Assembly (NCBI GenBank): GCA_017525505.1
Contig: JAFXSR010000046.1
Span: 1,520-65,519 of the forward strand
Direction: 5' to 3'
DNA: 64,000 bases
DNA from: Bacteroidales bacterium
GTDB lineage: Bacteria; Bacteroidota; Bacteroidia; Bacteroidales; WCHB1-69
The notes under the pieces are model-generated. The model did no database searches, was not told the origin of the DNA, and saw only the letters and a program-made list of their open reading frames with translations. Within the stretch, counting starts at the first letter, position 1; the number at the start of each line of letters is the position of its first letter. Shown here in pieces: positions 4,942 to 56,005 of the stretch. Position numbers and translations under genes: made by a program.

Positions 4942-4973
4942 GTTTAATATATTTTTTCAACAATGCAAAAAAA

Positions 4974-5379
4974 GTACCGAAGGTACGATATCTCAATAAC
5001 CCCGCACGTCAGTATGGGGTCTGGGAGAGGGAGTAACATCAACTCTCGATCTGCACACATCGACAGAGCATGATGAGGCCCGTAGGGCCGAAAAGAATAC
5101 AGACAGGGGTGTAACCCCTGATACAGACAGGGGCGCAGCCCCTGGTAGAAAGGACCACATATATCATCGCGGCACGTGTTGTGTTTGCCATGATGATGTG
5201 TTATGCTTGCCGCGAAAGTGAGGGGTGATGTTACAGTGCCTCAGGATCTTGACAGAGTGAGACACCTTGGTTTTGAGTCTGACGATGTGTCGCCTCTTCG
5301 AGGCTCAGAGACATGTGTGGGCATCCTCTCACCCCACACTAACGTGCGGGGTTACTGAAATGGTGCCTCTTCGAGGCAC
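4974..5379 (+). mobile_element. MITE-like hairpin-module element, copy A
   Basis: The left end gtaccgaaggtac...tcaataaccccgcacgtcagtatggggt and the right end accccacactaacgtgcggggttactga...gtgcctcttcgaggcac are inverted repeats of each other. The element is collinear with copy B except for an extra hairpin-rich insert at about 5025-5165. Confidence 0.7.
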
Positions 5380-5409
5380 AGGCTTAGTCTTCACAAACCA
5401 ATGAAATCT

Positions 5410-5854: not shown

Positions 5855-6436
5855 TCAAAAAGAAGTATTGGCCTCCCATGTCAGTTGTTTTTCAACAAAC
5901 AACAATCCACATCCTACTTTTACTTGATATCGATCATCTTCGTAGGCAATATCAGAAACGTTTTGAACTCGTTGCCATGTCCAGTTTGTCTCATTCAAGA
6001 AATATCCAGGTTGTATATCCGGCCATAAGTCACTGTTGTATTTATCTAAAGATTTCACATAGAGCAAGTTGTCTCTGACGAACATGTCATAAGTGATGGT
6101 AAAGGTTCGATTAAAATCTTCAGGAAGCGCCATGTTTTTGACGGGGCCATCCATTTCTGGCACAGCCACAACAATAGCATTGTCCCAGTCAAAATCGTAA
6201 TAACAATAATCCCCAAATTTAAGGAAATAATAACCATGGTATTTGACAGCACGCTCAAGTCGCCAAAACTTATTCTGGAAATGCGTGTCTTTGTCAGAAT
6301 TGAAATATACATTTATGGTATCGGTGCTGACCGTGAATTGTTGTGCCCGCAAATTGGGCACCATGCCACACAGTATCATCACCAGTGCAAGCGCTATGAA
6401 TATTCTGTTTTTCATCATGGCAAATAAAGTTATCAC
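5855..6436 (-). CDS. Hypothetical secreted protein
   Basis: Signal-peptide-like N-terminus (MMKNRIFIALALVMILCGMVPNLRAQ). There is a 4-nt ATGA overlap with the upstream gene. The true start may be the internal MMKN. Confidence 0.5.
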   Translation of the reverse strand: MITLFAMMKNRIFIALALVMILCGMVPNLRAQQFTVSTDTINVYFNSDKDTHFQNKFWRLERAVKYHGYYFLKFGDYCYYDFDWDNAIVVAVPEMDGPVKNMALPEDFNRTFTITYDMFVRDNLLYVKSLDKYNSDLWPDIQPGYFLNETNWTWQRVQNVSDIAYEDDRYQVKVGCGLLFVEKQLTWEANTSF

Positions 6437-8863: not shown

Positions 8864-8979
8864 AATCTTCGTGAACCAATGAGATTAATTCATCAAAATA
8901 GTCATCTACAGACATAGTATCCTCAATGATTTTGTCTTTGCTGGAAGAATCGTCTCCCTAGACATGAGGATGTCTTGGA

Positions 8980-9264
8980 GTACCGAAGGTACGACATCTC
9001 AATAACCCCGCACGTCAGTGTGGGGTATGGAATGCACAATCTAATCTAATCGCGGCATGTACTATGCATGCCCTGATGATATGTTGTGCATGCCGCGAAA
9101 GGGAGGAATGATGTTACAGGGCTTACAGGATCTTGACAGACTGTGACACCTTGGTTTTGTGTCTGATGATGTGTCGCCTCTTCGAGGCTCATAGACATGT
9201 GTGAGCATCCTTTTGCCCCACACTTACGTGCGGGGTTACTGATGTGTCGCCTCTTCGAGGCTCA
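8980..9264 (+). mobile_element. MITE-like hairpin-module element, copy B
   Basis: It has the same ends and internal order as copy A: gtaccgaaggtac, aaccccgcacgtcagtgtggggt, ...cgcgaaag..gatgttacag..ggatcttgacag..gacaccttggttttg.., gcctcttcgaggc, ccccacacttacgtgcggggttactga, gcctcttcgaggc. Confidence 0.7.
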
Positions 9265-9283
9265 GGTACAATCTTCGTGAATA

Positions 9284-11605: not shown

Positions 11606-11757
11606 GTGTCGCCTCTTCGAGGCTTAAAGGAAGTTGGGGCTTTTTCCACCCCAGACTCACGTCTGGGGTTATTGAGATAATGCCTCTTCGAGGCATGGGG
11701 ACCAAAACAAGGTTCCTTTTACCCCATACTCATATCAGAAATTCCTCTTCGAGTCAC
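11606..11757 (+). mobile_element. MITE-like hairpin-module element, partial copy C (right-end modules only)
   Basis: The sequence is gtgtcgcctcttcgaggc ... accccagactcacgtctggggttattgaga-taatgcctcttcgaggcat, followed by a degenerate second unit accccatactcat...cctcttcgagtcac. It matches the right end of copies A and B. Confidence 0.6.
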
Positions 11758-11808: not shown

Positions 11809-13110
11809 TCACAACTCATCTTCAACAACATTCAATCCCTGCAACAATGCTTTCAACACCTCGGCATGGCGGCCAGGCACGATAACATGATGATTGCCAA
11901 TAGGATTGGTCAGGAAATAGGCGGTTTGCGAGGGCTCTGCCAAGCGCACCACCAACTGTGTGCGACAAAGGTCGGGTTGGGACTGATTCCGGATCAATCC
12001 GCCCTCGGTGATGAAGCATCGGGACAAGTCGCCAGCCACTTTGCATATCGTGACAGGTCCTTCAGGCACATAGCCGCGGATGCCCACCCCGATACCCGAC
12101 TCGAAATGTGTGTCCAGTTCGTAACGTTGCACCATATCGAAAGGAATGGTACAATGAGCGAACAGAATTTCACCCGTTTCGGGGTTGATGGAAGCGGGAT
12201 TGGCCTGGAAGCACGAGACGCCGCACAAAGCACGCACCACCATCATGGTCAGCATGGTGGGCACATCGCCTTCGCAACCCGCCACAATGTCCTCAGAATT
12301 CAACTTGGCCAAAGCCCAGCAGCCCGTATTATGCACGGAATCCAGCAAATCGAAACAACGCAAGGTAAAGCCTTGAAGCTGATAATTTTCAATTAAAGAT
12401 TTCAATGCCAAATAAATACGGTATGCATCCGGCAATGAATTGGCCACAGCGGCCGAACCACAAAGCCCTTTCGAGAATACAGAAGCAACTGTATTACAAC
12501 AACATTCACCCAGACCAGCTATTTTAAGACTAGCAAACAAACTCTTCACCTCTACCGTTGACATCTGCGGAATTCCCGCTAAAGTCTCCAGCAATTCGCT
12601 CATCGGAATATCCACAAACTCCACACCTAAGTTCTGACGCACCTTGGCAGCATCTTTCACGCTCGCAATCAGCCAATCGGACGGTTCACCAATCACACCG
12701 AGACGGCACTGGCGCAAATAGTTCGAGGCATCCCCTACTCTTTGCAACATCCTGATTTTGGCAGAAACGTATGCGGCTTTGCCATGCAGAATTTCTCCCT
12801 GCATGCCCTGCTGCCTCAGATACGACAGAATCTCCAACGAAGCAGCCAAGGAATTGCTCTTGTCGGAAGCCAAAAGATAAAACGGCTTGGCGGACTGTGC
12901 CTCCAGCTGTGGCAAAAGGCGTTTGAAAAGGCCTTCGGTGCCACCCGTCCGCACAAATATCAAATCCAGATCATGGCTGCCGTAGTCGGCAAAATCATTG
13001 TCTTTCAGTTCGTACGTCAAATCCAGTGATGATAAAAACTCCTGGGTTAGAGCCGTTATTGCCTGCGGGTCATGCAGTGCGGAAGTTATAGGGTAAATGG
13101 CGATGGACAT
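11809..13110 (-). CDS. L-fucose/L-arabinose isomerase-superfamily protein
   Basis: 433 aa. The central motif IVAGCEGDVPTMLTMMVVRAL...FQANPASINPETGEILFAHCTIP resembles the sugar isomerase (FucI/AraA-like) catalytic region. The specific substrate is unknown. Confidence 0.5.
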   Translation of the reverse strand: MSIAIYPITSALHDPQAITALTQEFLSSLDLTYELKDNDFADYGSHDLDLIFVRTGGTEGLFKRLLPQLEAQSAKPFYLLASDKSNSLAASLEILSYLRQQGMQGEILHGKAAYVSAKIRMLQRVGDASNYLRQCRLGVIGEPSDWLIASVKDAAKVRQNLGVEFVDIPMSELLETLAGIPQMSTVEVKSLFASLKIAGLGECCCNTVASVFSKGLCGSAAVANSLPDAYRIYLALKSLIENYQLQGFTLRCFDLLDSVHNTGCWALAKLNSEDIVAGCEGDVPTMLTMMVVRALCGVSCFQANPASINPETGEILFAHCTIPFDMVQRYELDTHFESGIGVGIRGYVPEGPVTICKVAGDLSRCFITEGGLIRNQSQPDLCRTQLVVRLAEPSQTAYFLTNPIGNHHVIVPGRHAEVLKALLQGLNVVEDEL

Positions 13111-13114
13111 TTTT

Positions 13115-13262
13115 AGTATAAAGTATAAAGTATAAAGTTTATAGTTGACAGTTGATAATTGATAGTTGACAATTGATAATTGGTTTAGGAGGTTTAGAAA
13201 GGTTACACGGTTAGGAGGTTATTAAGTTTATGGATTATGAATTTTGAATTCTGAATTAAATT
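13115..13262. repeat. Drifting tandem word array filling a whole intergenic spacer
   Basis: The units are gtataaa x3, gtttata, gttgaca, gttgata, attgata, gttgaca, attgata, then ggtttag/gaggttt-type words, then ttatgga/ttatgaa/ttttgaa/ttctgaa. The period is mostly 7. Confidence 0.8.
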
Positions 13263-13850: not shown

Positions 13851-14480
13851 TTAAACATTGTATTCCGCCATATCCTCCGCTGCCATCGGCAGTTCCTCCT
13901 CCACATGGATATAGCTTTTATCTTTCGGATTGAAGGTTGCGAGGTAATAATCATGAAGCTGAACCTCAACACGCAACATCGTCTGTTCCAACTGTTTGGG
14001 TTTCAACTGGCACTCCCAAAGCACAATCACCTGCCAGCCATTCTCCCGCAGAATCCGGTAATTTTCCTGATCCCGCTCCTGATTCCTCTGAATCTTTCGA
14101 ATCCAAAAATCAGTATTGCTTTGCGGAATCCTGCAACACTCAGAATTCTCAACCTTCTTTCTATCAACCTTATACGGAATTCCCTTCTCTCCCACCTTTC
14201 CAACCGCTACTCCAGAATCCGAATTCTCAACTGTCAATTGTAAACTGTCAACTGTCAACTGAACCCCGTGTCCATGCCAAAAGCACCCGTTCACAAAGAT
14301 GGCGGTGCGATACTTCCGCATCACGATATCCGGCTTCCCCGGCACCCCTTTTACACACAAGCGGTAGCGATAGCCATGTTGCCACAGCCACTGCCGCACC
14401 TTGATTTCAGGCTTGGTATTCCGGCTGCGGATATGCGACATGCAGCGGTGGCGTTGTATCGGGGTCATGATGTCAGTCAT
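13851..14480 (-). CDS. vsr: Very-short-patch repair endonuclease with an in-frame repeat-derived insertion
   Basis: SRNTKPEIKVRQWLWQHGYRYRL...GKPDIVMRKYRTAIFVNGCFWHGH ... PQSNTDFWIRKIQRNQERD...GWQVIVLWECQL is the Vsr signature. About 36-39 extra residues interrupt the CFWHGHxC segment. Confidence 0.8.
   Translation of the reverse strand: MTDIMTPIQRHRCMSHIRSRNTKPEIKVRQWLWQHGYRYRLCVKGVPGKPDIVMRKYRTAIFVNGCFWHGHGVQLTVDSLQLTVENSDSGVAVGKVGEKGIPYKVDRKKVENSECCRIPQSNTDFWIRKIQRNQERDQENYRILRENGWQVIVLWECQLKPKQLEQTMLRVEVQLHDYYLATFNPKDKSYIHVEEELPMAAEDMAEYNV
14143..14262. repeat. Repeat-vocabulary insertion inside vsr
   Basis: An 11-bp direct repeat gaattctcaac (14143-14153 and 14221-14231) bounds a 78-bp block. 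It is followed by heptamers caactgt/caattgt/aaactgt/caactgt/caactga. Confidence 0.75.
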
Positions 14481-14481
14481 A
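14441..14481. repeat. 41-bp direct repeat, copy 1 (authentic vsr 5' end)
   Basis: tgcagcggtggcgttgtatcggggtcatgatgtcagtcata. It is identical to 15833-15873 at 40 of 41 positions. Confidence 0.9.
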
Positions 14482-14884
14482 AGTACTGTTTGTCAAAAAC
14501 GATTTTTTTTAGCTTTTCGATCACGTCCAAATCTGCTGGCAGCCACTGCACGCTGTCGAGCTCATTAGGGGCGAGCCAACGGGCGGCCTCATGTTCGAGG
14601 AGGGTGAGCGAGCCGCTTTCTACGGTGCAGAGGAAGCAGTGCATGGTGAGGTGAAATTTGGGGTAATCCCATTCCACAGTATGTAACAGGCTCTCTATGC
14701 GGACACAGGTCTCCAGTTCCTCCCAGATTTCACGCTGAAGAGCTTCTTCTGGAGTTTCTCCTGGTTCAATCTTGCCTCCGGGAAACTCCCACCAGTCCTT
14801 CCAATCGCCAGCCCCCCGCTGGGTGGCGAAAATGCGACCTTCTGCATCATGTATAATCGCCGCTACAACCTCAATCTGTTTCAT
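14477..14884 (-). CDS. mutT: Nudix hydrolase (MutT / 8-oxo-dGTP or CTP pyrophosphohydrolase type)
   Basis: 135 aa. The Nudix box reads GGKIEPGETPEEALQREIWEELE. The stop overlaps the vsr ATG (ATGA). Confidence 0.8.
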   Translation of the reverse strand: MKQIEVVAAIIHDAEGRIFATQRGAGDWKDWWEFPGGKIEPGETPEEALQREIWEELETCVRIESLLHTVEWDYPKFHLTMHCFLCTVESGSLTLLEHEAARWLAPNELDSVQWLPADLDVIEKLKKIVFDKQYL

Positions 14885-14901
14885 AAATGTAAATATAAGA
14901 G

Positions 14902-15720
14902 TTATTTGTGAGTTATAACCATATCATACAAAATGGAATCCAGCAATTCATTTGTAGCATGGTTGTGTTCAGGGCGGAAACTGTTAACGCAATCATTATA
15001 ATATTCGCTCATACCGCGAGCATACTCCACCAAAGAATTATCAACAACCATCATATCGCACTCTCTCTCCCCCTTCTTCATCAATATCAATTCATTGATT
15101 TTATCTACCAAAGCCTTATCCTTGACAGTGGCATCAACAAGCTGCGTAAAGAGCACTGGTGGCAATGACTTGTGGTTTTCAATCCATTTACATGCCAAAA
15201 TACCTCGAAGATAGTATAGAAAACGCTTTGCCGGGTAGCCTTCTTGTTGGAGAAAACGTTCATTGTGCTTGTTATACATGTGATTGTAGTGATACATGGT
15301 CTTCACAGGGTCGAAGAATTGCCGCTCCACTTCGCGGATACGTCTGACAAAAGTCTCATCGGAAAGATACACCTTAGGAGAATTGAACCATTCAAGCAAC
15401 GATGGATTACTGCGTTTAAGCAAAGAAAGTGCCTTACGGAGTTCCCATCCGGCAAGGTCCACATCATCAGGATACATGTATTCAATGACATCACGCTGTT
15501 CCTCCACCTTAAAATACCATTGGGGTTTGTGAACATAGATAAAACGCACGTCCCAGTCGCTGTTTTTCGACTCGAATCCCCAAGCACGACTGCCGGACTC
15601 AACGGCAAGCAAGATTTTTACATCATATTCTCGCTCCACATCACGCAAGTGAGCCTGGATGAGCACTTTCTCCATCTTTTCGATTAAATTCTGAGAGCTT
15701 AAATCTTCGTTCATATTCAT
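14902..15720 (-). CDS. Pol-beta-superfamily nucleotidyltransferase (RlaP / PF10127-like)
   Basis: Start set at ATG MNMNEDL; the track ORF begins at an upstream TTG. LLAVESGSRAWGFESKNSDWDVRFIYV...DLAGWELRKALSLLKRSNPSLLEWFNSP matches the predicted-nucleotidyltransferase family. Confidence 0.7.
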   Translation of the reverse strand: MNMNEDLSSQNLIEKMEKVLIQAHLRDVEREYDVKILLAVESGSRAWGFESKNSDWDVRFIYVHKPQWYFKVEEQRDVIEYMYPDDVDLAGWELRKALSLLKRSNPSLLEWFNSPKVYLSDETFVRRIREVERQFFDPVKTMYHYNHMYNKHNERFLQQEGYPAKRFLYYLRGILACKWIENHKSLPPVLFTQLVDATVKDKALVDKINELILMKKGERECDMMVVDNSLVEYARGMSEYYNDCVNSFRPEHNHATNELLDSILYDMVITHK

Positions 15721-15832
15721 CGTTATTTTGATTTTCAAAAAGTCATTTTTATATTTTTTTCCACTGCATTTTCTGCTACCCAAGGTCTTTTCCCCCTGAT
15801 CTACATAGAGATTGAGATCAACCTTGCAATAA

Positions 15833-15873
15833 TGCAGCGGTGGCGTTGTATCGGGGTCATAATGTCAGTCATA
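15833..15873. repeat. 41-bp direct repeat, copy 2 (stranded vsr 5' fragment)
   Basis: tgcagcggtggcgttgtatcggggtcataatgtcagtcata. It encodes MTDIMTPIQRHRC on the minus strand, then diverges to a stop after 23 codons. Confidence 0.9.
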
Positions 15874-15876
15874 GCA

Positions 15877-16548
15877 TTACCAGATATAAGGAATGACTTT
15901 GTATTTCACCCTTTGTTTGTACTCGCGGTAGCCCTTAAGGCCTTGCTCCAGAACGGCTTCTTCATTACGTATCCGCTTAGCAATAAGCGGAATATAGAGC
16001 AGCATGACCAGGAAAGAGATGGGCGAAGCCAGTACCAACGGCATCATCAGGAAAAGTATGTTCGTGGACATATACATCGGGTGGCGGACGATGCCGTAAA
16101 GTCCTGTGTCAATGACCTTCTGGTTTTCCTGCACCTCGACAGTTCGCGAGAGGTAAGTATTTTCGCGCAGCACCTCCGCATACAGGATATAGCCGAACAG
16201 GAAGAATGTGGCAGCAAGCCACACGACCCAAACGGGCAGCACCAGCCACTGGAAACGCCAGTTCAATCCAGCCACCACAAAGGCTACGACAAACACCACA
16301 GCACTCAGCGCCACGACAGCCTTCTGTTCTCGCTCATCCTCTCTAGCATTCAAGCGTTTACGAAGCAATTCCGGATTCTTCACCATCAATATCAATCCTG
16401 CAACGAACATCGGTACAAACAAAACGCCCATCATCAGCCACCCCTGCCAATAATGGAACGAACCAGCGGGCAAGAAGATGAGCAATCCGAGAATAACAAC
16501 CCCCGAAAGGAACTTCATCAAAGCCTGGAAAAAGAGTTTGGTATCCAT
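15877..16548 (-). CDS. Isoprenylcysteine carboxyl / phospholipid methyltransferase-family membrane protein
   Basis: 223 aa and multi-TM. The C-terminal motif GLYGIVRHPMYMSTNILFLMMPLVLAS...EEAVLE is typical of the ICMT/PEMT family. Confidence 0.7.
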   Translation of the reverse strand: MDTKLFFQALMKFLSGVVILGLLIFLPAGSFHYWQGWLMMGVLFVPMFVAGLILMVKNPELLRKRLNAREDEREQKAVVALSAVVFVVAFVVAGLNWRFQWLVLPVWVVWLAATFFLFGYILYAEVLRENTYLSRTVEVQENQKVIDTGLYGIVRHPMYMSTNILFLMMPLVLASPISFLVMLLYIPLIAKRIRNEEAVLEQGLKGYREYKQRVKYKVIPYIW

Positions 16549-16563
16549 AGTGTGTTGATTTTA

Positions 16564-16716
16564 TCAGTTCTTGTTGAGGATGACGAGTGCGGCAATGACG
16601 CCCGGCACCCATCCAGCCAAAGTGAGCAGAAATACGATAAGTACTGACCCGCAGCCCTTGTCGATGACTGCCAGCGGCGGGAAAAAGATGGCTAATAAGA
16701 CACGAAGAAGAGACAT
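16564..16716 (-). CDS. YqaE/Pmp3-family small membrane protein (below the ORF-track cut-off)
   Basis: Hand translation gives MSLLRVLLAIFFPPLAVIDKGCGSVLIVFLLTLAGWVPGVIAALVILNKN (50 aa). PPLAV...LLT(L)LGW(I/V)PG(V)IHA-type motifs define the UPF0057/Pmp3 family. Confidence 0.7.
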   Translation of the reverse strand: MSLLRVLLAIFFPPLAVIDKGCGSVLIVFLLTLAGWVPGVIAALVILNKN

Positions 16717-16721
16717 GAAGA

Positions 16722-16973
16722 CTATTTTTTTAGGGTTTCTAATGCCCGGCAGAGCTGGTCGGGGCAGGAGGTGGCTTTATCGCCACAACGGATGCCATTC
16801 AGTATGCCAATGACATCGTCAATCTTTCGGCCTGTCACCAAACGACTGATTCCTTGCAGGTTACCATGGCAACCGCCATAAAAAACAACTTGCTGAATAA
16901 CATCATTCTCATCGACCGTCACATCGATGAACTGCGAGCAGGTTCCTTGGGTTTTGTAGAGGGTGTGTTTCAT
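16722..16973 (-). CDS. TSCPD-domain protein (TIGR03905-like)
   Basis: 83 aa. The sequence reads GTCSQFIDVTVDENDVIQQVVFYGGCHGNLQGISRLVTGRKIDDVIGILNGIRCGDKATSCPDQL, with the eponymous TSCPD motif. Confidence 0.75.
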   Translation of the reverse strand: MKHTLYKTQGTCSQFIDVTVDENDVIQQVVFYGGCHGNLQGISRLVTGRKIDDVIGILNGIRCGDKATSCPDQLCRALETLKK

Positions 16974-17929
16974 ATTTGTTCATTTTTTAGTTTTTCCACC
17001 AATTCATCGCTGATGTTATTGCCTAATTGCTGGCAAACATCCTGACTCCAGCGTTGGGCCATCTTAATAAATTGACAGTTTATAGTTGACAGTTGACAGT
17101 TATTTTTGGCGAACGTTGAATCTTCCGTTTTCAATTTACCATTTTCAATGGCAAGCTTCGCATAGATATAGCCTGCGTTGAAGTTGTCACCAGCCCCTAC
17201 CGTACTGACAGTTTCTATCGGCTGCACAGGATAAGTCTCGCAGCTCTCAGGCGTATAGACCCGTATCTGGCGCGCTCCGTCAGTCAGTATCAGCGTCTGG
17301 CAATAGCGGCTCACCCGCTCATAAATGGCATCGCCGTCGTGCAAGCCGAGAAGGTACCCAAAGTCCTCCATAGAACCACGAACCACATCAGCCAGCCGCA
17401 TGTTCTCTTCAATATTGGGCATCACGTCGGGCAGGTCGGCGATATGGTTTTTACGGAAGTTGACGTCGTAATAAAGCCAGGCACCCGCCTCGTGTGCCTT
17501 ACGAAGCAAGCCACCCACCACGGAGCGTATCACAGGGTTGATAGCGAAGAACGACCCGAACAGCACCACATCATTTTTGCTAAAAGTCGGCAGAGGGCCA
17601 TCGAGCGATACTGACGCATGGTCCTTGTAAAAGACATATTGCGCATCGTTATGCTCGTTGAGGAAAGCCAACGTGATGTGTGACTTGACATTTTCGTGGC
17701 GGCAGACGTATTCCGACGACACTCCATTCTCCTGCAGGTAATTGCAAATCAGATCTCCCACGTGGTCGCCACCTACATCTGTCACCATGACACAGTTCAT
17801 GCCTGCCCGTCCCAGCGAGACGATGCTGTTGAACGTCGAGCCCCCCGGCACAGCCTTCAGCGGCTGATCGTCCTTAAAGAGGATGTCCAATACAGTTTCT
17901 CCGATACCGATGATGCGATTTTTAGTCAT
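16970..17929 (-). CDS. PfkB-family carbohydrate kinase (fructokinase)
   Basis: IIGIGETVLDILFKDDQPLKAVPGGSTFNSIVSLGRAG...LAFLNEHNDAQYVFYKD...VSTVGAGDNFNAGYIY closely follows Bacteroides fructokinase. The C-terminal region contains a heptamer tract (NNCQLSTINCQFI). Confidence 0.8.
   Translation of the reverse strand: MTKNRIIGIGETVLDILFKDDQPLKAVPGGSTFNSIVSLGRAGMNCVMVTDVGGDHVGDLICNYLQENGVSSEYVCRHENVKSHITLAFLNEHNDAQYVFYKDHASVSLDGPLPTFSKNDVVLFGSFFAINPVIRSVVGGLLRKAHEAGAWLYYDVNFRKNHIADLPDVMPNIEENMRLADVVRGSMEDFGYLLGLHDGDAIYERVSRYCQTLILTDGARQIRVYTPESCETYPVQPIETVSTVGAGDNFNAGYIYAKLAIENGKLKTEDSTFAKNNCQLSTINCQFIKMAQRWSQDVCQQLGNNISDELVEKLKNEQI
17068..17104. repeat. Heptamer tract inside the fructokinase CDS
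   Basis: The units are attgaca/gtttata/gttgaca/gttgaca/gttattt. The same GTTGACA vocabulary occurs at 13144 and 14232. Confidence 0.75.
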
Positions 17930-17956
17930 TTTTTAACCGACACTTTTACAGTATGT

Positions 17957-19153
17957 TTATTTCCCCTTGCTTAAAAATCTGCAAAACTCCACCAAACTGC
18001 GCTGAATGACACCGCCCACCTGTAGTTGTTCTTTATAGAGAGCCACCATCGTGGGTGACATGCTACGATTCAGTGCATAGCGAACCACCTCCATATCAGC
18101 ATCTTTGCAAAGAATAATACCGATGCTCGGGTTCTCGTTCGAGCGACGTTCTTCCTGATCCAATGCCTCCAGATAAAACTCCAGCTGCCCCAAATCCTTG
18201 GGTTGGAACTCATCGGTCTTCAACTCGATGGCCACCATACATTGCAATAGTCTGTGATAGAACAGCAAATCAACCTTGAACGTCTTGCTGCCCACAGTAA
18301 TGCGATGCTCTTCATCGATAAACAGAAAGTCTTTGCCCATCTCCATGATGAAGTCTTTCATGTGGGCAATAATTTCCCTCCGCAGTTTCGATTCTTTGTA
18401 CTTCACTGGCAGGCCAAACATCTCCAGATAGACAGTATCTTTGAACAATACGCCACTTTGCGGATATTCGCGTTTCATCATTTCCGACTGCACATCCTTG
18501 CTGCCAAGCAGAGAAGTCATGGTATTAGTCTTAATTGCCCTTACAAGCTCCTTGTTCTCCAACTGCTCTTTTCCAGCATAAAGCATATAAAACAGGCGTT
18601 CCGAATCGGTTTTGCATCTGTTCATAATAATCTGATGGTTTGTCCAACCTGTGGAGAACAGCACCCTAGGAATTTGTGCCATTTCGAATGGCACAATTAC
18701 ATCGTTTCCTATTTGTGCCATTTCGAATGGCACAATTGTCCTCTTCTCATCAGGTAGCTCTCGCTGATCAGATTTTGACGGATAGTGTTGCATGCCATAA
18801 TGATTAACCATCTCGTTGAAACTCTTCGATGAATAGGTTTCATAGAACTGCACCATCTTATAGATTGTACGATAACTCCATCCCTTAGACTTGGGACTCC
18901 TAGTGTGAATATACTCTGCCAGCATACGCACAACGCCGTCACCCCAAATGGCTTTTTTCAATCTGTCGGAAACGTATGCACCCACTTCCCAAAGCATGCG
19001 GAGCGATTCGTTATGCACGGCATACATCGCCCGTTTCTTGTGGACGAAGATAATGCCGCATATTGTATCGAACTCCTTCTTGTATGCCAAAGGATTATTG
19101 CCCGTCTCAACAACTGTTGGCATATTGCCACTATCTATTTTTTTCTTTGCCAT
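17957..19153 (-). CDS. DUF1016 / YhcG-family PD-(D/E)XK nuclease-domain protein
   Basis: Start set at MAKKKIDSG, 37 nt downstream of a TATCTTTG box. The C-terminal VDLLFYHRLLQCMVAIELKTDEFQPKDLGQLEFYLEAL is the PDDEXK core of the YhcG family. Confidence 0.7.
   Translation of the reverse strand: MAKKKIDSGNMPTVVETGNNPLAYKKEFDTICGIIFVHKKRAMYAVHNESLRMLWEVGAYVSDRLKKAIWGDGVVRMLAEYIHTRSPKSKGWSYRTIYKMVQFYETYSSKSFNEMVNHYGMQHYPSKSDQRELPDEKRTIVPFEMAQIGNDVIVPFEMAQIPRVLFSTGWTNHQIIMNRCKTDSERLFYMLYAGKEQLENKELVRAIKTNTMTSLLGSKDVQSEMMKREYPQSGVLFKDTVYLEMFGLPVKYKESKLRREIIAHMKDFIMEMGKDFLFIDEEHRITVGSKTFKVDLLFYHRLLQCMVAIELKTDEFQPKDLGQLEFYLEALDQEERRSNENPSIGIILCKDADMEVVRYALNRSMSPTMVALYKEQLQVGGVIQRSLVEFCRFLSKGK
18672..18749. 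repeat. 39-bp tandem duplication carrying a 10-bp-stem hairpin, inside the DUF1016 gene
   Basis: atttgtgccatttcgaatggcacaatt occurs twice, 39 bp (13 codons) apart, giving IVPFEMAQI twice. Each copy contains ttgtgccatt-tcg-aatggcacaa. Confidence 0.85.
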
Positions 19154-19189
19154 ATTTCTATATCTTTTTGTTTCCTCAAAAATATTTTG

Positions 19190-19197
19190 CAAAGATA
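19190..19197 (-). promoter_or_regulatory. Bacteroidota -7 promoter box (TATCTTTG) for the DUF1016 operon
   Basis: The reverse complement of caaagata lies 37 nt upstream of the ATG at 19153. Confidence 0.5.
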
Positions 19198-19293
19198 CAA
19201 AGAAAAACAAGAACACCCATGAATCCTGTGAATTATGTTTGGAGAATAATAGCGTAATAAAGTGTGTATAGAAACGCATTATGTTTTTTTTAG

Positions 19294-19360: not shown

Positions 19361-19741
19361 ATGACACGTGATCAATTAAGAAAAATCATTAATGAGTACA
19401 AAAGACGTGCCGCTGATGGACATAGGTGTGGAATTGATTTATATGAAAGAAACAGACTTATTAAGGTAGTGCATGAATTAGAAGATAATTTTGACTTCTA
19501 CTTGGACTTTGAAGAAGACCCTGAGGAACTTGATTGTTTTTTAGATATTTATATAGAAAAGGAGAAACCCCGATACAGGTGGGGACATCTGTCAAATCCA
19601 CCAGAAGAAGATTTAGATTTTGACGATGAAATAGACCTTTGGGATTGGGATTCTATAGAAGAAGAGAAAGAATATTATATTGATGATGAGGGGAATGAGT
19701 ATAATAAGGAGGATGAGGATTCAGAAGACGAAGACCTTTAG
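19361..19741 (+). CDS. Highly acidic hypothetical protein
   Basis: 126 aa. The C-terminal two thirds are dominated by D/E (…EEDLDFDDEIDLWDWDSIEEEKEYYIDDEGNEYNKEDEDSEDEDL). It has its own promoter box and is AT-rich. Confidence 0.5.
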   Translation: MTRDQLRKIINEYKRRAADGHRCGIDLYERNRLIKVVHELEDNFDFYLDFEEDPEELDCFLDIYIEKEKPRYRWGHLSNPPEEDLDFDDEIDLWDWDSIEEEKEYYIDDEGNEYNKEDEDSEDEDL

Positions 19742-19943: not shown

Positions 19944-20193
19944 CTATTTAAGTTTTTCCAACGCGCGACAAAGCTGGTCAGGACAGGATGTATCCATGCT
20001 GCCGCAGCGAATACCGTTGAGTTTTTTTGATGACGTAATCTATTTTCTGTCCAACGACCAGTCTACAGATGCCTTGAAGGTTTCCGTCGCATCCGCCCAT
20101 ATAGAAAACCTGCTGTACAATGCCATCGTCATCGACGGTCACATCAATGAACTGCGAGCAGGTGGGCTGGGGTTTGGAGGGGGTGTGGGGCAT
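19944..20193 (-). pseudogene. TSCPD-domain paralogue with a frameshift in a homopolymer
   Basis: The N-terminal 50 codons parallel 16722-16973 (TCSQFIDVTVDDDGIVQQVFYMGGCDGNLQGICRLVVGQKIDYVIKK). After the A7 run (T7 on the plus strand, 20022-20028) the conserved LNGIRCGSMDTSCPDQLCRALEKLK* continues in another frame. Confidence 0.6.
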
Positions 20194-20233: not shown

Positions 20234-21340
20234 TTATCGTAATCTAATTTGTAGGTTTAATTTAAACATCAAATCTCCATTTAGATCTTTATAAACCATT
20301 GCATATTTATGCCTTGTGGTACTGGCACGTTCGAGATACGCATTTGTAAACAAATAATCTTCAAATCTATTGCGGTCATAAAAATGATAACAAACAATAT
20401 CGCCGTCATTCTTCACAACAAGATAACCTCCATTTGCATCATATCGGCCTGTCCATAGTGTGGCAGGCATCATTCCAAGCGCAGCTGAGGTAAGAAGATG
20501 CTTGGCTTTGTATGTGTAAATCTCAAGTAGGTTGTTGCCTCTAAATCTCAAAGGATTTGTTTCTGACATTGTCTCAATTAATTGGGGAAAGGCTGAAATT
20601 CCTTCATCTAATTGAACTATTAGCATTGATGCAACCAAATGCGCCATGTCTCCATCCAACATTCGTATATTACGTTCAAAAACATCATTGTCAATATGAC
20701 TGTACTGGAGTCTACCACCTTTCCTCAATATGGCGTTGTATCTTTCAATAACCTTATTGCGAGACGGATTGATTTCATTAATGCTCTCAATTTCTTCATT
20801 GGTAAGATTCACACCAACTATTTTAAAGGTGAAATTTGTTGCTTCACTTGCATTTAACAATGTAGAGTTTCCGCCAAGTTGGGATTTTATACTAAAACCC
20901 ATTTCAGAGTTGAGACGAGTACGTTTATCATGCAGAACTATTCTTATATCAGTTTTATCGGAGGATCTTGCCTTGAGTGAATAACAATAAATGGAGTGCA
21001 TAAACTCTTCAATTAATGGCACAGAAAAAGCCCCGTCGTTTTCTTTTATCTTTTTCAACAGCATTTCTGATTGACTCAAAAACACATCGGCGGGAGTCCT
21101 TAAAAGTTCCTCTCCGCTTGCTTTGAAAATAACAATCTCGCTGCCTATTGGCGAATATTTGTATTTTTCTTCTCTTTCCTGTCGAATAATGGAAACAATA
21201 GGGTAAACTAAATCCAATATCCTATTTAGATTTTGGTCACCTGCATAGACTTCTCCTTCTCCTAATAGCTTCAATAAAGTGTATATCTCACTCCATTCTC
21301 CTTTATTTCCTGTTATTGCCATATTGTTTTGGTTTATCAA
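20234..21340 (-). CDS. Type II restriction endonuclease, HpaII family
   Basis: The N-terminal TGNKGEWSEIYTLLKLLGEGEVYAGD is the signature I associate with the RE_HpaII family. It overlaps the 3' end of the upstream C5-MTase gene and is AT-rich. The start may be 21322 (MAITGNK). Confidence 0.7.
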   Translation of the reverse strand: MINQNNMAITGNKGEWSEIYTLLKLLGEGEVYAGDQNLNRILDLVYPIVSIIRQEREEKYKYSPIGSEIVIFKASGEELLRTPADVFLSQSEMLLKKIKENDGAFSVPLIEEFMHSIYCYSLKARSSDKTDIRIVLHDKRTRLNSEMGFSIKSQLGGNSTLLNASEATNFTFKIVGVNLTNEEIESINEINPSRNKVIERYNAILRKGGRLQYSHIDNDVFERNIRMLDGDMAHLVASMLIVQLDEGISAFPQLIETMSETNPLRFRGNNLLEIYTYKAKHLLTSAALGMMPATLWTGRYDANGGYLVVKNDGDIVCYHFYDRNRFEDYLFTNAYLERASTTRHKYAMVYKDLNGDLMFKLNLQIRLR

Positions 21341-22544
21341 GTTTTATTCTTTTAATGATTTGTTCAGCTGTAGCCTGAATAGCAGGAACAGCAACAGAAT
21401 TACCAAATTGCTTGTATGCAGAAGCATCAGCAACGGGTATTATAAACGAGTCAGGGAACCCTTGCAGCCTTGCCCATTCTCTCGGTGTCATTCTCCGCCA
21501 GCCATCGTGGTTGATTTCCCCTTTTATGTTAGTCACGGGTGTAAAATTAGTCAAACGATTGTCTATCACTATGTTGCGCTCACGCCCCATCCCTCCAACA
21601 ACAATAGCATTTGCTACTCCGTCATCTGAGATAATCTCATAACCGAATCCGTTGCCCTTGCTTTCGTGACGCTTTTTGTGCTCGATTAATGTTTGCTGGT
21701 ATTGAGTTGAAAGATAATACTTAGGAGAGACCTCTCTGTCTTCCCTTATATCAATGAATCGTTTGGTTTTATCTGTAGGTTCAGGATATTTAAAACTCCT
21801 TACCTTCATATCTTTACGGAAACCAACAATATAAATTCTTTCTCTATGTTGTGGAACTCCAAAGTTCATAGCATTGACAATCTCAGGATCGGGTACATAA
21901 TAATCCAAATCGTTTCGTAGCACATTCAGGATTGTGTCAAGGGTTTTTCCTTTATCATGAATCATCAAACCTTTTACGTTTTCTAAAAAGAATGCTTTGG
22001 GACGTTTTCTGCGCAATATTTCTGCCACATCGAAGAATAACGTACCTCGGGTCTCTTCAAAACCACGGCGTTTACCAGCAAGAGAGAAAGCTTGGCAAGG
22101 GAATCCTGCACACAGTATGTCAAAACCATCTGGGATATATTGTTTTGTGGATTCTTTGGTTATATCTCCAAAAGGTACTTCTCCGTAATTGGCTAAATAT
22201 GTTTTTTGAGCTTGTGCATCCCATTCCGAAGAATAAATACATTTTCCTCCCAGATTTTGCATAGCAATACGAAATCCTCCTATACCAGCAAATAAATCAA
22301 TAAATGTGAATTTAGGATTTTCTGGAGCTCGAAATGGTACAGAAAGCAACTCTGGAAATAGGTTATATTGAATGTCAGGCTCTGCTACAACATTCCGTTG
22401 CTCTTTATAATTATCATTATTTAGCAAAAACAAAGCATCTTTCTCAAAAGAAAGAGCATATTTACTATGTTTATTTTGAAGATAATGCGTAACTATTGCA
22501 GAATCATCATTCAGTGAAATATTAAATTTATTTCGCATGATCAA
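21303..22544 (-). CDS. DNA (cytosine-5)-methyltransferase
   Basis: The motifs are: I FIDLFAGIGGF, IV GFPCQAFS, VI ENVKGL, VIII QHRERIYIVGF, and IX-X REWARLQGFPDSF...GNSVAVP. Confidence 0.9.
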   Translation of the reverse strand: MIMRNKFNISLNDDSAIVTHYLQNKHSKYALSFEKDALFLLNNDNYKEQRNVVAEPDIQYNLFPELLSVPFRAPENPKFTFIDLFAGIGGFRIAMQNLGGKCIYSSEWDAQAQKTYLANYGEVPFGDITKESTKQYIPDGFDILCAGFPCQAFSLAGKRRGFEETRGTLFFDVAEILRRKRPKAFFLENVKGLMIHDKGKTLDTILNVLRNDLDYYVPDPEIVNAMNFGVPQHRERIYIVGFRKDMKVRSFKYPEPTDKTKRFIDIREDREVSPKYYLSTQYQQTLIEHKKRHESKGNGFGYEIISDDGVANAIVVGGMGRERNIVIDNRLTNFTPVTNIKGEINHDGWRRMTPREWARLQGFPDSFIIPVADASAYKQFGNSVAVPAIQATAEQIIKRIKLDKPKQYGNNRK

Positions 22545-30155: not shown

Positions 30156-30698
30156 ATGAAAAAACTATCTATGGAAGAACTCCACCGTGTAAGCCCCGAG
30201 GAGTTCAAAAAAATCAAGAAAATACCGCTGACCGTCGTTTTAGACGACATACGCAGCATGAACAATATCGGCTCCATTTTCCGCACCTGCGACGGCTTAG
30301 CCGTAGAACAGCTATATCTTTGCGGCATCACCGCCTGCCCGCCCAACAAGGAAATCAACAAAACCGCCCTCGGCGCCACCGAAAGCGTGGAATGGCATTA
30401 TTTCGAGGATGTAGTGGAAGCCGTCAAACAACTGCAACATAGTGGCTACAAGGTTTTTATGGTAGAACAAACCGACCAGTCCATCATGCTGCAAGATCTG
30501 AAAATTCCCCAAGGACAGAAAACCGCCATCATCTTGGGAAATGAGGTGTTCGGTGTCAGCGACAAACTGCTGCCCATCGTAGATGGAGCCATCGAAATCC
30601 CCCAGTTCGGTACCAAACACTCCTTCAACGTGACCATCGCCGCGGGAATGGTGATGTGGGAGATCTTTAAACAGGTTTCAGGGGTCAGGGGTCAGTGA
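30156..30698 (+). CDS. TrmH/SpoU-family RNA 2'-O-methyltransferase
   Basis: 180 aa. LTVVLDDIRSMNNIGSIFRTCDG...ILGNEVFGVS...IEIPQFGTKHSFNVTIAAGMV are the SpoU motifs. Confidence 0.8.
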   Translation: MKKLSMEELHRVSPEEFKKIKKIPLTVVLDDIRSMNNIGSIFRTCDGLAVEQLYLCGITACPPNKEINKTALGATESVEWHYFEDVVEAVKQLQHSGYKVFMVEQTDQSIMLQDLKIPQGQKTAIILGNEVFGVSDKLLPIVDGAIEIPQFGTKHSFNVTIAAGMVMWEIFKQVSGVRGQ

Positions 30699-30757
30699 TT
30701 AGGGGTTAGTGATTAGGGGTTAGGTATCAGGGATTAAGGATTCAAAATTCAAAGACT
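30679..30757. repeat. Tandem word array overlapping the trmH stop
   Basis: The units are caggggt x2, then agtgattaggggtt x2 (period 14), aggtatcagggatt, aaggatt and caaaatt. The first units encode the last codons VSGVRGQ*. Confidence 0.8.
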
Positions 30758-30832
30758 CACCTGATGCGAAGCATCACTCACCTCGAGTGCGTAGCACGAG
30801 ACTCACCCGTATTAATTACACATTAAAAAAAC

Positions 30833-30863
30833 TTTCAGCTTTCAGTTTTCAGTTTTCAACTTC
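30833..30863. repeat. Heptamer array (tttcagy) overlapping the thioesterase stop
   Basis: The units are tttcagc/tttcagt/tttcagt/tttcaac. On the minus strand this encodes ...KLKTEN*. It is the reverse complement of the gaaaact arrays at 48629 and 51425. Confidence 0.8.
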
Positions 30864-31600: not shown

Positions 31601-31690
31601 CCCCTAATCACCATATCCTAATCACTCCTGCCTTCCACCTTCCACCTTTTACCTTCTACCTTCCACCTGACCACTGATCCCTTACCACTG
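31601..31690. repeat. Tandem word array downstream of cobB
   Basis: The sequence is cccctaatcac / cctaatcact, then ccttcca x2, ccttttaccttctaccttccacc, then ccactga/cccttaccact. These are reverse-complement vocabulary of the 30700 and 48581 arrays. Confidence 0.75.
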
Positions 31691-32407: not shown

Positions 32408-32510
32408 GGATTCAAAGTTCAAAATTCAGAATTCAAAATTCATTGGCACATCATATCCTTGGCTAATTTCACTGGCTAATAAACTAATTTGCTAATTTGC
32501 TAATTATTAC
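32408..32510. repeat. Tandem word arrays in the cobB / EF-G divergent spacer
   Basis: The units are ttcaaag/ttcaaaa/ttcagaa/ttcaaaa/ttcattg, then ggctaatttcac/tggctaataaac/taatttgc/taatttgc/taattatt. Confidence 0.8.
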
Positions 32511-32511
32511 G

Positions 32512-32519
32512 TATCTTTG
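32512..32519 (+). promoter_or_regulatory. Bacteroidota -7 promoter box (TATCTTTG) upstream of the EF-G paralogue
   Basis: tatctttg lies 50 nt upstream of the ATG at 32569. Confidence 0.5.
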
Positions 32520-32568
32520 CAAAATCAAATTAAAATAGTCAACTAATTAATAATCAATAAAATAAATA

Positions 32569-39596: not shown

Positions 39597-39664
39597 CACT
39601 ATCATTTCAAATTCCAAAGACTCCCCTGATGCGAAGCATCTCTCACATGAGCGCAATGGAACTC

Positions 39665-39730
39665 CACTAACCCCTAATCACTAACCCCTAAAAATCAGCA
39701 CATTAGCACATTAACTAATTTGCTAATTAA
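39665..39730. repeat. Tandem word array overlapping the stop of the PPAD-like gene
   Basis: The units are cactaacccctaat x2 (the reverse complement of the 30700 words), gcacatta x2, and ctaatttgctaatt. The last unit supplies the codons ...KIN* on the minus strand. Confidence 0.75.
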
Positions 39731-48580: not shown

Positions 48581-48793
48581 AGGTGGAAAGTAGAAAGTGG
48601 GAGGTGGGAGAATTTAAGAATTAAGAACTGAAAACTGAAAACTGAAAACTGAAAGTTCTTTTTAATGTGCCAATTAACAATGTGCTAATGTGCCAATTAA
48701 ACGGAAAACGGAAAGTTGTCAAAAGATATGTGATAAAAAACAAATCAACAAATAAACAAATAAACAAATCAACAATTAAACAAATCAACAACA
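48581..48793. repeat. Longest drifting tandem word array (periods 7 and 8), filling the whole spacer up to the glyA ATG
   Basis: The units are aggtgga/aagtaga/aagtggg/aggtggg/agaattt/aagaatt/aagaact/gaaaact x3/gaaagtt, then ...aatgtgccaattaac..., acggaaa x2, then ...aacaaatc/aacaaata x2/aacaaatc/aacaatta/aacaaatc. Confidence 0.85.
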
Positions 48794-51423: not shown

Positions 51424-51532
51424 AAAAACTGAAAACTGAAAGTTAACAATTAAGGGGGAGATGGTGTGAAGATTATTGGATTATTAGATGATGGATTTAG
51501 GATTAAACATTAAACTCTAAACATTAAACAAA
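51424..51532. repeat. Tandem word array filling the sigma54-activator / lptE spacer
   Basis: The units are aaaaact/gaaaact/gaaagtt, then ...gattattg/gattatta/gatgatg/gatttag/gattaaa/cattaaa/ctctaaa/cattaaa. Confidence 0.8.
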
Positions 51533-55972: not shown

Positions 55973-56005
55973 AATTTGAATTCTGAATTCTGAATTCTAA
56001 ATTTC
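55973..56005. repeat. Heptamer array (gaattct) in a convergent spacer
   Basis: aatttgaattctgaattctgaattctaaatttc. Confidence 0.8.

Follow-up and report, generated by a model that had tools for sequence, protein, structure and literature searches.

The 64,000-nt stretch of Bacteroidales DNA analysed here ("the window", from contig JAFXSR010000046.1) carries the start of vsr, the gene for a very-short-patch mismatch endonuclease, twice: once at the head of the intact gene and again farther upstream, where it stands between a gene for an ICMT/PEMT-family membrane methyltransferase (the ICMT-family gene) and one for an RlaP-family Pol-beta nucleotidyltransferase (NTase). The upstream copy is probably a 5' stub of vsr without function, left as a scar when illegitimate or short-homology recombination acted within a shuffled islet of HpaII restriction-modification and repair genes, and not the border of an element. 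Open reading frames (ORFs) examined between 9.2 and 25.4 kb were compared with Pfam, and a part of them also with NCBIfam and PADLOC; L-numbers are labels of the related genome loci with which the window was compared. The features on which the argument turns are these:

13851-14480, minus strand: vsr, very-short-patch mismatch endonuclease gene, 209 aa (PF03852, TIGR00632)
14440-14481, minus strand: repeat copy 1, the intact vsr start (repeat and pattern search)
14477-14884, minus strand: MutT-like Nudix hydrolase gene, 135 aa (PF00293; TIGR00586); its stop overlaps the vsr ATG by 4 nt (ATGA)
14902-15720, minus strand: RlaP-family Pol-beta NTase gene, 272 aa from MNMNED... (PF10127, 253.7 bits)
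15721-15831, minus strand: leader of about 110 nt from the stub to the NTase start, homologous to the leaders of L120, L101, L121 and L102
15832-15873, minus strand: repeat copy 2, the orphaned vsr 5' stub, which in L018/L030 has the start of the ICMT-linked vsr as its syntenic counterpart
15877-16548, minus strand: ICMT/PEMT-family membrane methyltransferase gene, found directly before vsr in many relatives

A repeat search of the window gives the two copies as a 42-nt direct repeat with 41 of the 42 bases the same and 1392 nt from start to start. An earlier reading, made from the letters of the window alone (the sequence-only reading), had reported a near-perfect 41-nt repeat of the vsr start; the length needs correcting, and the repeat itself is real, since a pattern search with up to 3 mismatches allowed hits exactly these two places in the 64 kb, and 100 dinucleotide-preserving shuffles gave no hit at all. 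On the minus strand, copy 1 opens the 209-aa Vsr ORF (MTDIMTPIQRHRC...) and also spans the Nudix-vsr junction. Copy 2 consists of a T, the ATG and 13 codons of vsr; as had been noted, its frame ends after 23 codons (ORF 15872-15801, MTDIMTPIQRHRCIIARLISISM and a stop). It begins 3 nt past the stop codon of the ICMT-family gene, with its ATG 4 nt past that stop, and not after the 5-nt gap first described. The matches to PF10127, PF00293 and TIGR00586 bear out the two genes that had been named between the copies, and the ATGA overlap of the Nudix stop with the vsr ATG is likewise as claimed. Both copies are base-for-base unchanged in all same-species metagenome contigs that span them (at least 10 independent assemblies), which excludes an assembly artefact.

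The origin of copy 2 can be read from the relatives. A genome scan with the ICMT-family protein gave 80 loci, nearly all from metagenome-assembled genomes of uncultured rumen Bacteroidales, onto which the window proteins were mapped. In about 13 of these related genomes the ICMT-family gene is directly followed by vsr, with a gap of about 7 nt between its stop and the vsr ATG (L018, L021, L024, L030, L031, L034, L037, L040, L041, L051, L056, L062 and L069). This identifies copy 2 as the start of the vsr gene usually found after the ICMT-family gene, and vsr in that place is probably the ancestral state in this rumen Bacteroidales lineage. The window and its closest species, L018 and L030, are colinear through Pmp3, the ICMT-family gene and the ICMT-linked vsr, and the colinearity stops exactly at 15832, the last base of copy 2. 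Together these observations uphold the earlier proposal of an orphaned vsr start in the upstream position. An empty arrangement such as the proposal called for, with the methyltransferase-family gene directly before vsr, has thus been found, and because the vsr in these relatives is intact, insertion into a vsr start is supported; the two-gene cassette is not supported, and mobility is not demonstrable.

The other end of the interval has a separate history. The Nudix-vsr junction AAAAAATCRTTTTTGACAAACAGTRCTTATGACTGA, ATGA overlap included, is common to the window and to L018/L030, where a Pmp3 copy precedes the Nudix gene and the NTase is absent, as it is from all 80 ICMT-anchored loci. L019 and L023 have a homologous Nudix-vsr junction without the 6-nt deletion that makes the overlap, and the window Nudix gene is itself a mosaic, its first ~80 nt being like L019/L023 and the remainder like L018/L030. 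Adjacency of NTase and Nudix genes is seen only in the window species and in the sister lineage L120. The G+C content is 41-45% in the NTase gene and about 52% in the Nudix gene and the vsr 5' end.

Copy 2 and the leader belong with the NTase. DNA homology of the window with L101 and L102 starts at 15880 and 15872, respectively, so that it covers copy 2 as well as the 111-nt leader, and homologous vsr stubs precede the NTase in L120, L101/L109, L121/L122 and L102-105. In L120, L101, L121 and L102 a stub of 16 vsr codons is joined to the same leader, the junction reading ...GCATGTCGCAT followed directly by NNATGC(A/G)A; the sole difference at the junction of the window stub is a 7-nt deletion between two GCAT repeats. 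Four of the five lineages agree in every base of the last 21-24 nt of the stub (CGCCACCGCTGCATGTCGCAT, which encodes RHRCMSH). The stub ORF varies in length and start, with 23 codons in the window, 32 in L120, 41 in L102, a stop at codon 9 in L101 and a TTG start in L121; since neither length nor start codon is conserved, a role as a leader peptide is unlikely. A conserved TTTTTGAAA box lies in the leader about 25 nt 5' of the NTase ATG and may represent a promoter element of the Bacteroidetes type. A scan for sigma-70 promoters and terminators gave nothing useful, the sigma-70 model not fitting Bacteroidetes promoters, and neither leader nor stub matches an Rfam family. The idea that the leader is further decayed vsr was rejected: identity past codon 16 is ~30%, near random.

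Homologues of the NTase at 82-90% identity keep company with the same few genes but in different orders, and none of them adjoins a Nudix gene. The orders seen around the NTase are:

L098-100 and L110: TSCPD-Pmp3-NTase-ICMT-AAA_14-Vsr-p404-Nudix
L101 and L109: Pmp3-stub-NTase-ICMT-TSCPD-Nudix
L121 and L122: Pmp3-stub-NTase-ICMT
L102-105: stub-NTase-Vsr
L106-108 and L130: TSCPD fragment-NTase-TSCPD fragment-RhuM-like gene-Vsr
L120, the sister lineage: same as the window

In L102-104 the NTase alone lies between the two copies of a 47-nt repeat of the vsr start (87% identity, 970-nt spacing); of the forms seen, this order, stub-NTase-vsr, is the simplest, and it was probably the primary arrangement. 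The two TSCPD 5' fragments that flank the NTase in L106-108 are different from each other, with 30 and 11 codons (L106:4885-4975 and 5856-5890).

The course of events that we favour is as follows. An RlaP-type NTase with a leader of about 100 nt would once have been inserted after vsr codon 16, doubling the first 48 nt of the gene; stub, leader and NTase would from then on have acted as a single unit, now met in several gene orders, and in the window that unit would have been placed between the ICMT-family gene and the older, separately formed Nudix-vsr pair. Lying between these two, it would make the 1392-bp interval a composite of at least two events. Relocation of the unit may have proceeded by illegitimate or very-short-homology recombination, for which the unchanging 3'-terminal 21-24 nt of the stub could have provided a portable patch of homology to any vsr start. 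Duplications of gene starts would be favoured because in tight operons only those insertions survive that spare the downstream gene. The stub itself presumably has no function now.

Several points weigh against this account. Short-homology recombination is something we infer, not an event that was observed; no donor with an NTase-Nudix junction was found beyond the window species and L120; and the order of events cannot be reconstructed, L018 and L030 being closest in most genes yet ordered differently. Because the region is heavily mosaic, it is unsafe to assume vertical descent of the stub-leader-NTase unit. In addition, the stubs vary over their first 27 nt, where each is like the vsr type found in the same clade, so that plain neutral decay of one ancestral stub does not fit; the pattern needs gene conversion, recombination inside the stub, or repeated insertion at the same nucleotide. 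The combination of a clade-specific first 27 nt with an invariant last 21-24 nt fits recombination within the stub when the unit lands by a resident vsr, or gene conversion.

The degree of mosaicism is apparent from the two nearest comparisons. Relative to L018, the window is 99.5% identical in YhcG (17957-19153 against L018:5209-6405, with neighbouring genes at 86-97%), 97% in the ICMT-family gene and 86% in the Nudix gene, in a different gene order; the ICMT-family DNA is 94-97% identical to that of L018/L030. Relative to L120 the order is the same, and the NTase ORF (14902-15720 against L120:3815-4633) is 96% identical with flanks at 80-90%. This unevenness of identity suggests recent exchange of single genes between lineages. 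L018 and L030 have two vsr copies each (L018:4789-8404 and L030:8671-12186; both contigs end within the second vsr). The ICMT-linked copy is cut at about codon 120 by a 3.4-kb insert, after which comes the second, intact vsr; the insert is made up of a 2.65-kb YhcG-PfkB-TSCPD-Pmp3 block, 96-97% identical to window 16561-19211, and the Nudix gene, and its left junction lies inside vsr at an 8-nt microhomology, CAGGATTC. Derivation of the window order from that of L018/L030 by single events, or the reverse, was considered and rejected, there being no simple path between them.

One alternative is a dedicated or systematic mechanism by which single-gene cassettes enter the 5' ends of resident genes, duplicating the stretch from the start codon to the insertion point, after which recombination would keep the repeats alike; circularised fragments bearing a gene start could, for instance, integrate in the Campbell manner. 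We regard this as unlikely. It draws on L021, L024 and L029, in which an AAA_14/DUF4143 gene is flanked by 76-81-nt repeats of the Nudix start; these repeats are 94-99% identical within a genome and differ between genomes, the junctions differ by 1-8 nt, and the cassette is 89-93.5% identical between species as against 73-89% for its flanks. Only four copies of this cassette were present among the fetched loci, and one has no stub:

L021:9267-10711, AAA_14/DUF4143 cassette
L024:9238-10670, AAA_14/DUF4143 cassette
L029:9351-10784, AAA_14/DUF4143 cassette
L042:3100-4385, again this cassette, its left boundary unchanged (ATTGAGAATTTTT leader), but placed between Pmp3 and the ICMT-family gene and without a Nudix stub

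The NTase of L106 between two TSCPD 5' fragments and the 3.4-kb insert of L018/L030 between vsr 5' repeats would be further products of such a mechanism, and all of the duplications begin within 7 nt of the start codon of the target gene; however, stub lengths run from 3 to about 120 codons, as random illegitimate joins filtered for an intact downstream gene would give, and no enzyme candidate was found. The copies in L102 have diverged (87%), which argues against general homogenisation, and the same cassettes occur without stubs in L098 and L042. It is doubtful that the starts of vsr, Nudix and TSCPD genes act as recurrent landing pads for single defence or repair genes (the RlaP NTase and the AAA_14/DUF4143 ATPase-nuclease), independently of a recombinase and with copying of the 5' end of the target, for example through integration of circularised fragments via 20-80 nt of homology, the flanking repeats being kept alike by further recombination. 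If true, rumen Bacteroidales would have a system that shuffles cassettes by way of gene starts.

A recent, local origin is improbable as well. Here the stub would be the remnant of a second, ICMT-linked vsr like that of L018/L030, in which everything from codon 14 to the Nudix start had been replaced by the NTase, and it would have no tie of descent to the stubs of L101/L102. The presence in L018/L030 of a truncated ICMT-linked vsr together with a Nudix gene before an intact one agrees with this, as does the local vsr sequence type of the window stub, but independent deletion would not be expected to yield a leader and a stub/leader junction homologous to those of L120, L101, L121 and L102. 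A hybrid, in which recombination within the stub joined the resident vsr start to an incoming stub-leader-NTase, is possible and forms part of the explanation favoured above.

It is very unlikely that the stub is kept as a working leader, serving as an upstream ORF or a site of re-initiation by which expression of the NTase would be tied to the ICMT-family gene: the position of its ATG 4 nt past the ICMT-family stop and its invariant 3' end in four of five lineages would suit such a role, but its ORF length and start codon vary, its ORF in the window ends ~80 nt before the NTase ATG, and the NTase is found without any vsr stub in L098 and L106.

The sequence-only reading had taken the NTase and Nudix genes for one two-gene cassette, inserted into or duplicated out of the vsr start. 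Spelled out, such a model has the cassette integrate into, or loop out of, the first 13-14 codons of vsr, with the 42-bp repeat as attachment site or target duplication. We give this next to no credence, and it is largely refuted already, even though a near-perfect repeat exactly brackets the two genes and the ICMT-vsr site is empty in relatives. The Nudix-vsr junction exists without the NTase and without this upstream stub in L018, L030, L019 and L023; the NTase moves with the stub and without the Nudix gene; and the G+C content of the two genes differs. Nor do the two travel together, adjacent as they are only in this species and L120 and not co-conserved elsewhere, an outcome that the sequence-only reading had itself named as grounds for refutation. 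Apart from the empty site in relatives, tests for mobility were negative. No integrase, recombinase or transposase domain is encoded by the ORFs examined in the 9.2-25.4 kb interval (two of these ORFs have no Pfam family), and a repeat search found no terminal inverted repeats at the repeat borders. Exact-protein look-ups gave no empty allele in the species, all contigs with the exact ICMT-family, Nudix or Vsr protein being filled, with both copies unchanged. The 1.4-kb unit has no match on plasmids and a single weak one among phages, to the Nudix gene only, in a phage-like contig. A target duplication of 42 bp would far exceed those of known transposases.

The window resembles islands and prophages integrated at attachment (att) sites in gene or tRNA ends in having a direct repeat of a gene end, a restored intact gene and an empty site in relatives; it differs from them in having no integrase within ~10 kb, in its short (1.4 kb) and composite interval, the repeat borders not being those of one unit, and in the lack of presence/absence polymorphism among the same-species contigs. 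Another likeness is to insertion-duplication scars (Campbell-type single crossover, homology-facilitated illegitimate recombination), where the insert is also bracketed by a direct repeat of the target start, the downstream gene is intact and the upstream stub dead; the microhomology CAGGATTC at the sister junction is a further point of agreement. Unlike such scars, the window has no visible vector or element backbone, and its stub now belongs to the DNA upstream of the inserted NTase gene, with which it moves.

As to function, we presume from family knowledge that Vsr repairs T:G mismatches arising by deamination of HpaII-type 5-methylcytosine, that the Nudix protein cleans the nucleotide pool, and that the RlaP NTase extends damaged RNA 3' ends. 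A known Vsr module is dcm-vsr of E. coli, and vsr-like genes also stand beside C5-methyltransferase restriction-modification systems. The window vsr shares the orientation and neighbourhood of a C5-methyltransferase gene with an HpaII-type endonuclease, which is likely the source of the 5-methylcytosine served by Vsr repair; it differs from the Dcm-Vsr arrangement in lying ~6 kb from the methyltransferase gene, with unrelated genes between, and in an insert of ~43 aa in the protein. The Vsr matches PF03852 with 103.4 bits (cutoff 27) and TIGR00632 with 133.3 bits (cutoff 97.85), and aligns with E. coli Vsr (1CW0) in two blocks, 5-73 and 117-163. The insert (14133-14261) falls between FWHGH and CC-RIP, at E. 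coli Vsr residues 73-75, near the zinc ligands. It is partly encoded by an imperfect heptamer array (TCAACTG x5, 14227-14261); it is present also in L019 and L023 and shorter in L024, and L102 has a different insert with a hairpin repeat.

The Nudix protein resembles the MutT/NudG-type (d)NTP pyrophosphohydrolases, a predicted substrate class, in its TIGR00586 (MutT) match of 102.9 bits against a cutoff of 97.9 and in a Nudix box, GGKIEPGETPEEALQREIWEELE, visible in the translation (...REIWEELE..., with the catalytic glutamates). It also has a weaker match to PRK10546 (pyrimidine dNTP diphosphatase) and matches the PADLOC candidate PDC-S07 (E 1e-49). No functional data were found in the literature for PDC-S07, which is a candidate only, or for DUF4143.

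The NTase matches PF10127 over profile positions 4-208 of 249 (253.7 bits, E 2.8e-75), a strong Pfam match that it shares with the RtcB-associated RlaP enzymes (PMC12776372). The Pseudomonas members add 1 or 2 nucleotides to RNA 3'-OH ends and are inactive on DNA (PMC12776372). Homologues at 64% identity (L114-L116) adjoin RtcB, an adjacency seen only for these; the window NTase, in contrast, has vsr, Nudix, ICMT-family and macro-domain genes as neighbours, and no RNA ligase gene (RtcB or 5'-phosphate ligase) is present in window 9-25 kb, the RNA 3'-end activity being known for the Pseudomonas enzymes only. Since those enzymes act on RNA and not DNA, and given the RtcB neighbourhoods of the homologues, a role in DNA repair is not indicated for the NTase beside vsr. 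At L111:337-8867 a longer RlaP homologue (365 aa, 72% identical) is found within a candidate conflict system, which runs ADP-ribosylglycohydrolase, McrB-like AAA_5, McrC, RlaP, REase-ARP nuclease, Nudix and ties RlaP to ADP-ribose and 5-methylcytosine themes. With distant homologues next to RtcB, or to McrBC, ADP-ribosylglycohydrolase, REase-ARP and Nudix genes, the theme of nucleotide-centric conflict and repair raised in the sequence-only reading is a reasonable one.

From its upstream end, the islet runs C5-methyltransferase, R.HpaII, degraded TSCPD, YhcG, PfkB, TSCPD, Pmp3, ICMT-family gene, copy 2, NTase, Nudix, vsr; farther downstream, beyond vsr and likewise on the minus strand, come a macro-domain gene, a 433-aa ORF with no assigned family and NAGLU. 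The features upstream of the ICMT-family gene are:

21303-22544, minus strand: C5-cytosine methyltransferase gene (PF00145, 336 bits)
20234-21340, minus strand: HpaII-type restriction endonuclease gene, R.HpaII (PF09561, 406 bits)
19978-20193, minus strand: second TSCPD copy, C-terminally degraded, adjoining R.HpaII
19361-19741, plus strand: acidic ORF
17957-19279, minus strand: YhcG (DUF1016) gene
16970-17929, minus strand: PfkB gene
16722-16973, minus strand: TSCPD gene
16564-16716, minus strand: Pmp3 gene
16561-19211, minus strand: the YhcG-PfkB-TSCPD-Pmp3 block, 96-97% identical to the block inside the ICMT-linked vsr of L018/L030

In L013:3613-4749, a strain variant of the window species, a different AAA_14/DUF4143 gene follows the 433-aa ORF in the place of NAGLU; the contig ends there. 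YhcG contains a perfect 27-nt direct repeat (18672-18698 and 18711-18737, spacing 39 nt) with internal dyad symmetry, which doubles the peptide VPFEMAQI of the YhcG/DUF1016 protein and is present in L018 and L030 too. Many short tandem arrays with units of 7-8 nt, the unit differing from array to array, are scattered through the intergenic DNA (13110-13258, 30678-30862, 31631-31668, 32410-32560, 39664-39713, 48609-48791, 51425-51530 and 55973-56003), with another inside PfkB (17072-17101). An array of the TTGACAG type occurs in frame within both vsr and PfkB; in inverted orientation it matches the array at 13136-13181. A change of heptamer-array length was ruled out for the 304-aa PfkB variant of L006, which has a 1-nt indel elsewhere. 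Intergenic repeats resembling repetitive extragenic palindromes, with a hairpin core (CCCCGCACGT...GGGG) and 84-94% identity between copies, are found at 4973-5024 and 8979-9030, at 5242-5392 and 9126-9276, and at 11647-11695.

Taken alone, the repeat is a common trace of genome rearrangement, a newly found case of a familiar type of scar, and defines no new mobile element or system. It is useful as a worked example of how separate events can combine into a near-perfect repeat around two plausible genes. Attention is also drawn to a small islet of restriction-modification and repair genes (HpaII system, vsr, Nudix, RlaP NTase, ICMT-family gene, Pmp3, TSCPD, YhcG, AAA_14), the gene order of which has been reshuffled among closely related rumen Bacteroidales, leaving gene-start stubs behind. 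The 5'-stub duplications around other single genes in these relatives may reflect either selection on random events or a systematic route of insertion; if the latter is true, they would bear on how defence islands are assembled in bacteria without obvious cassette machinery.

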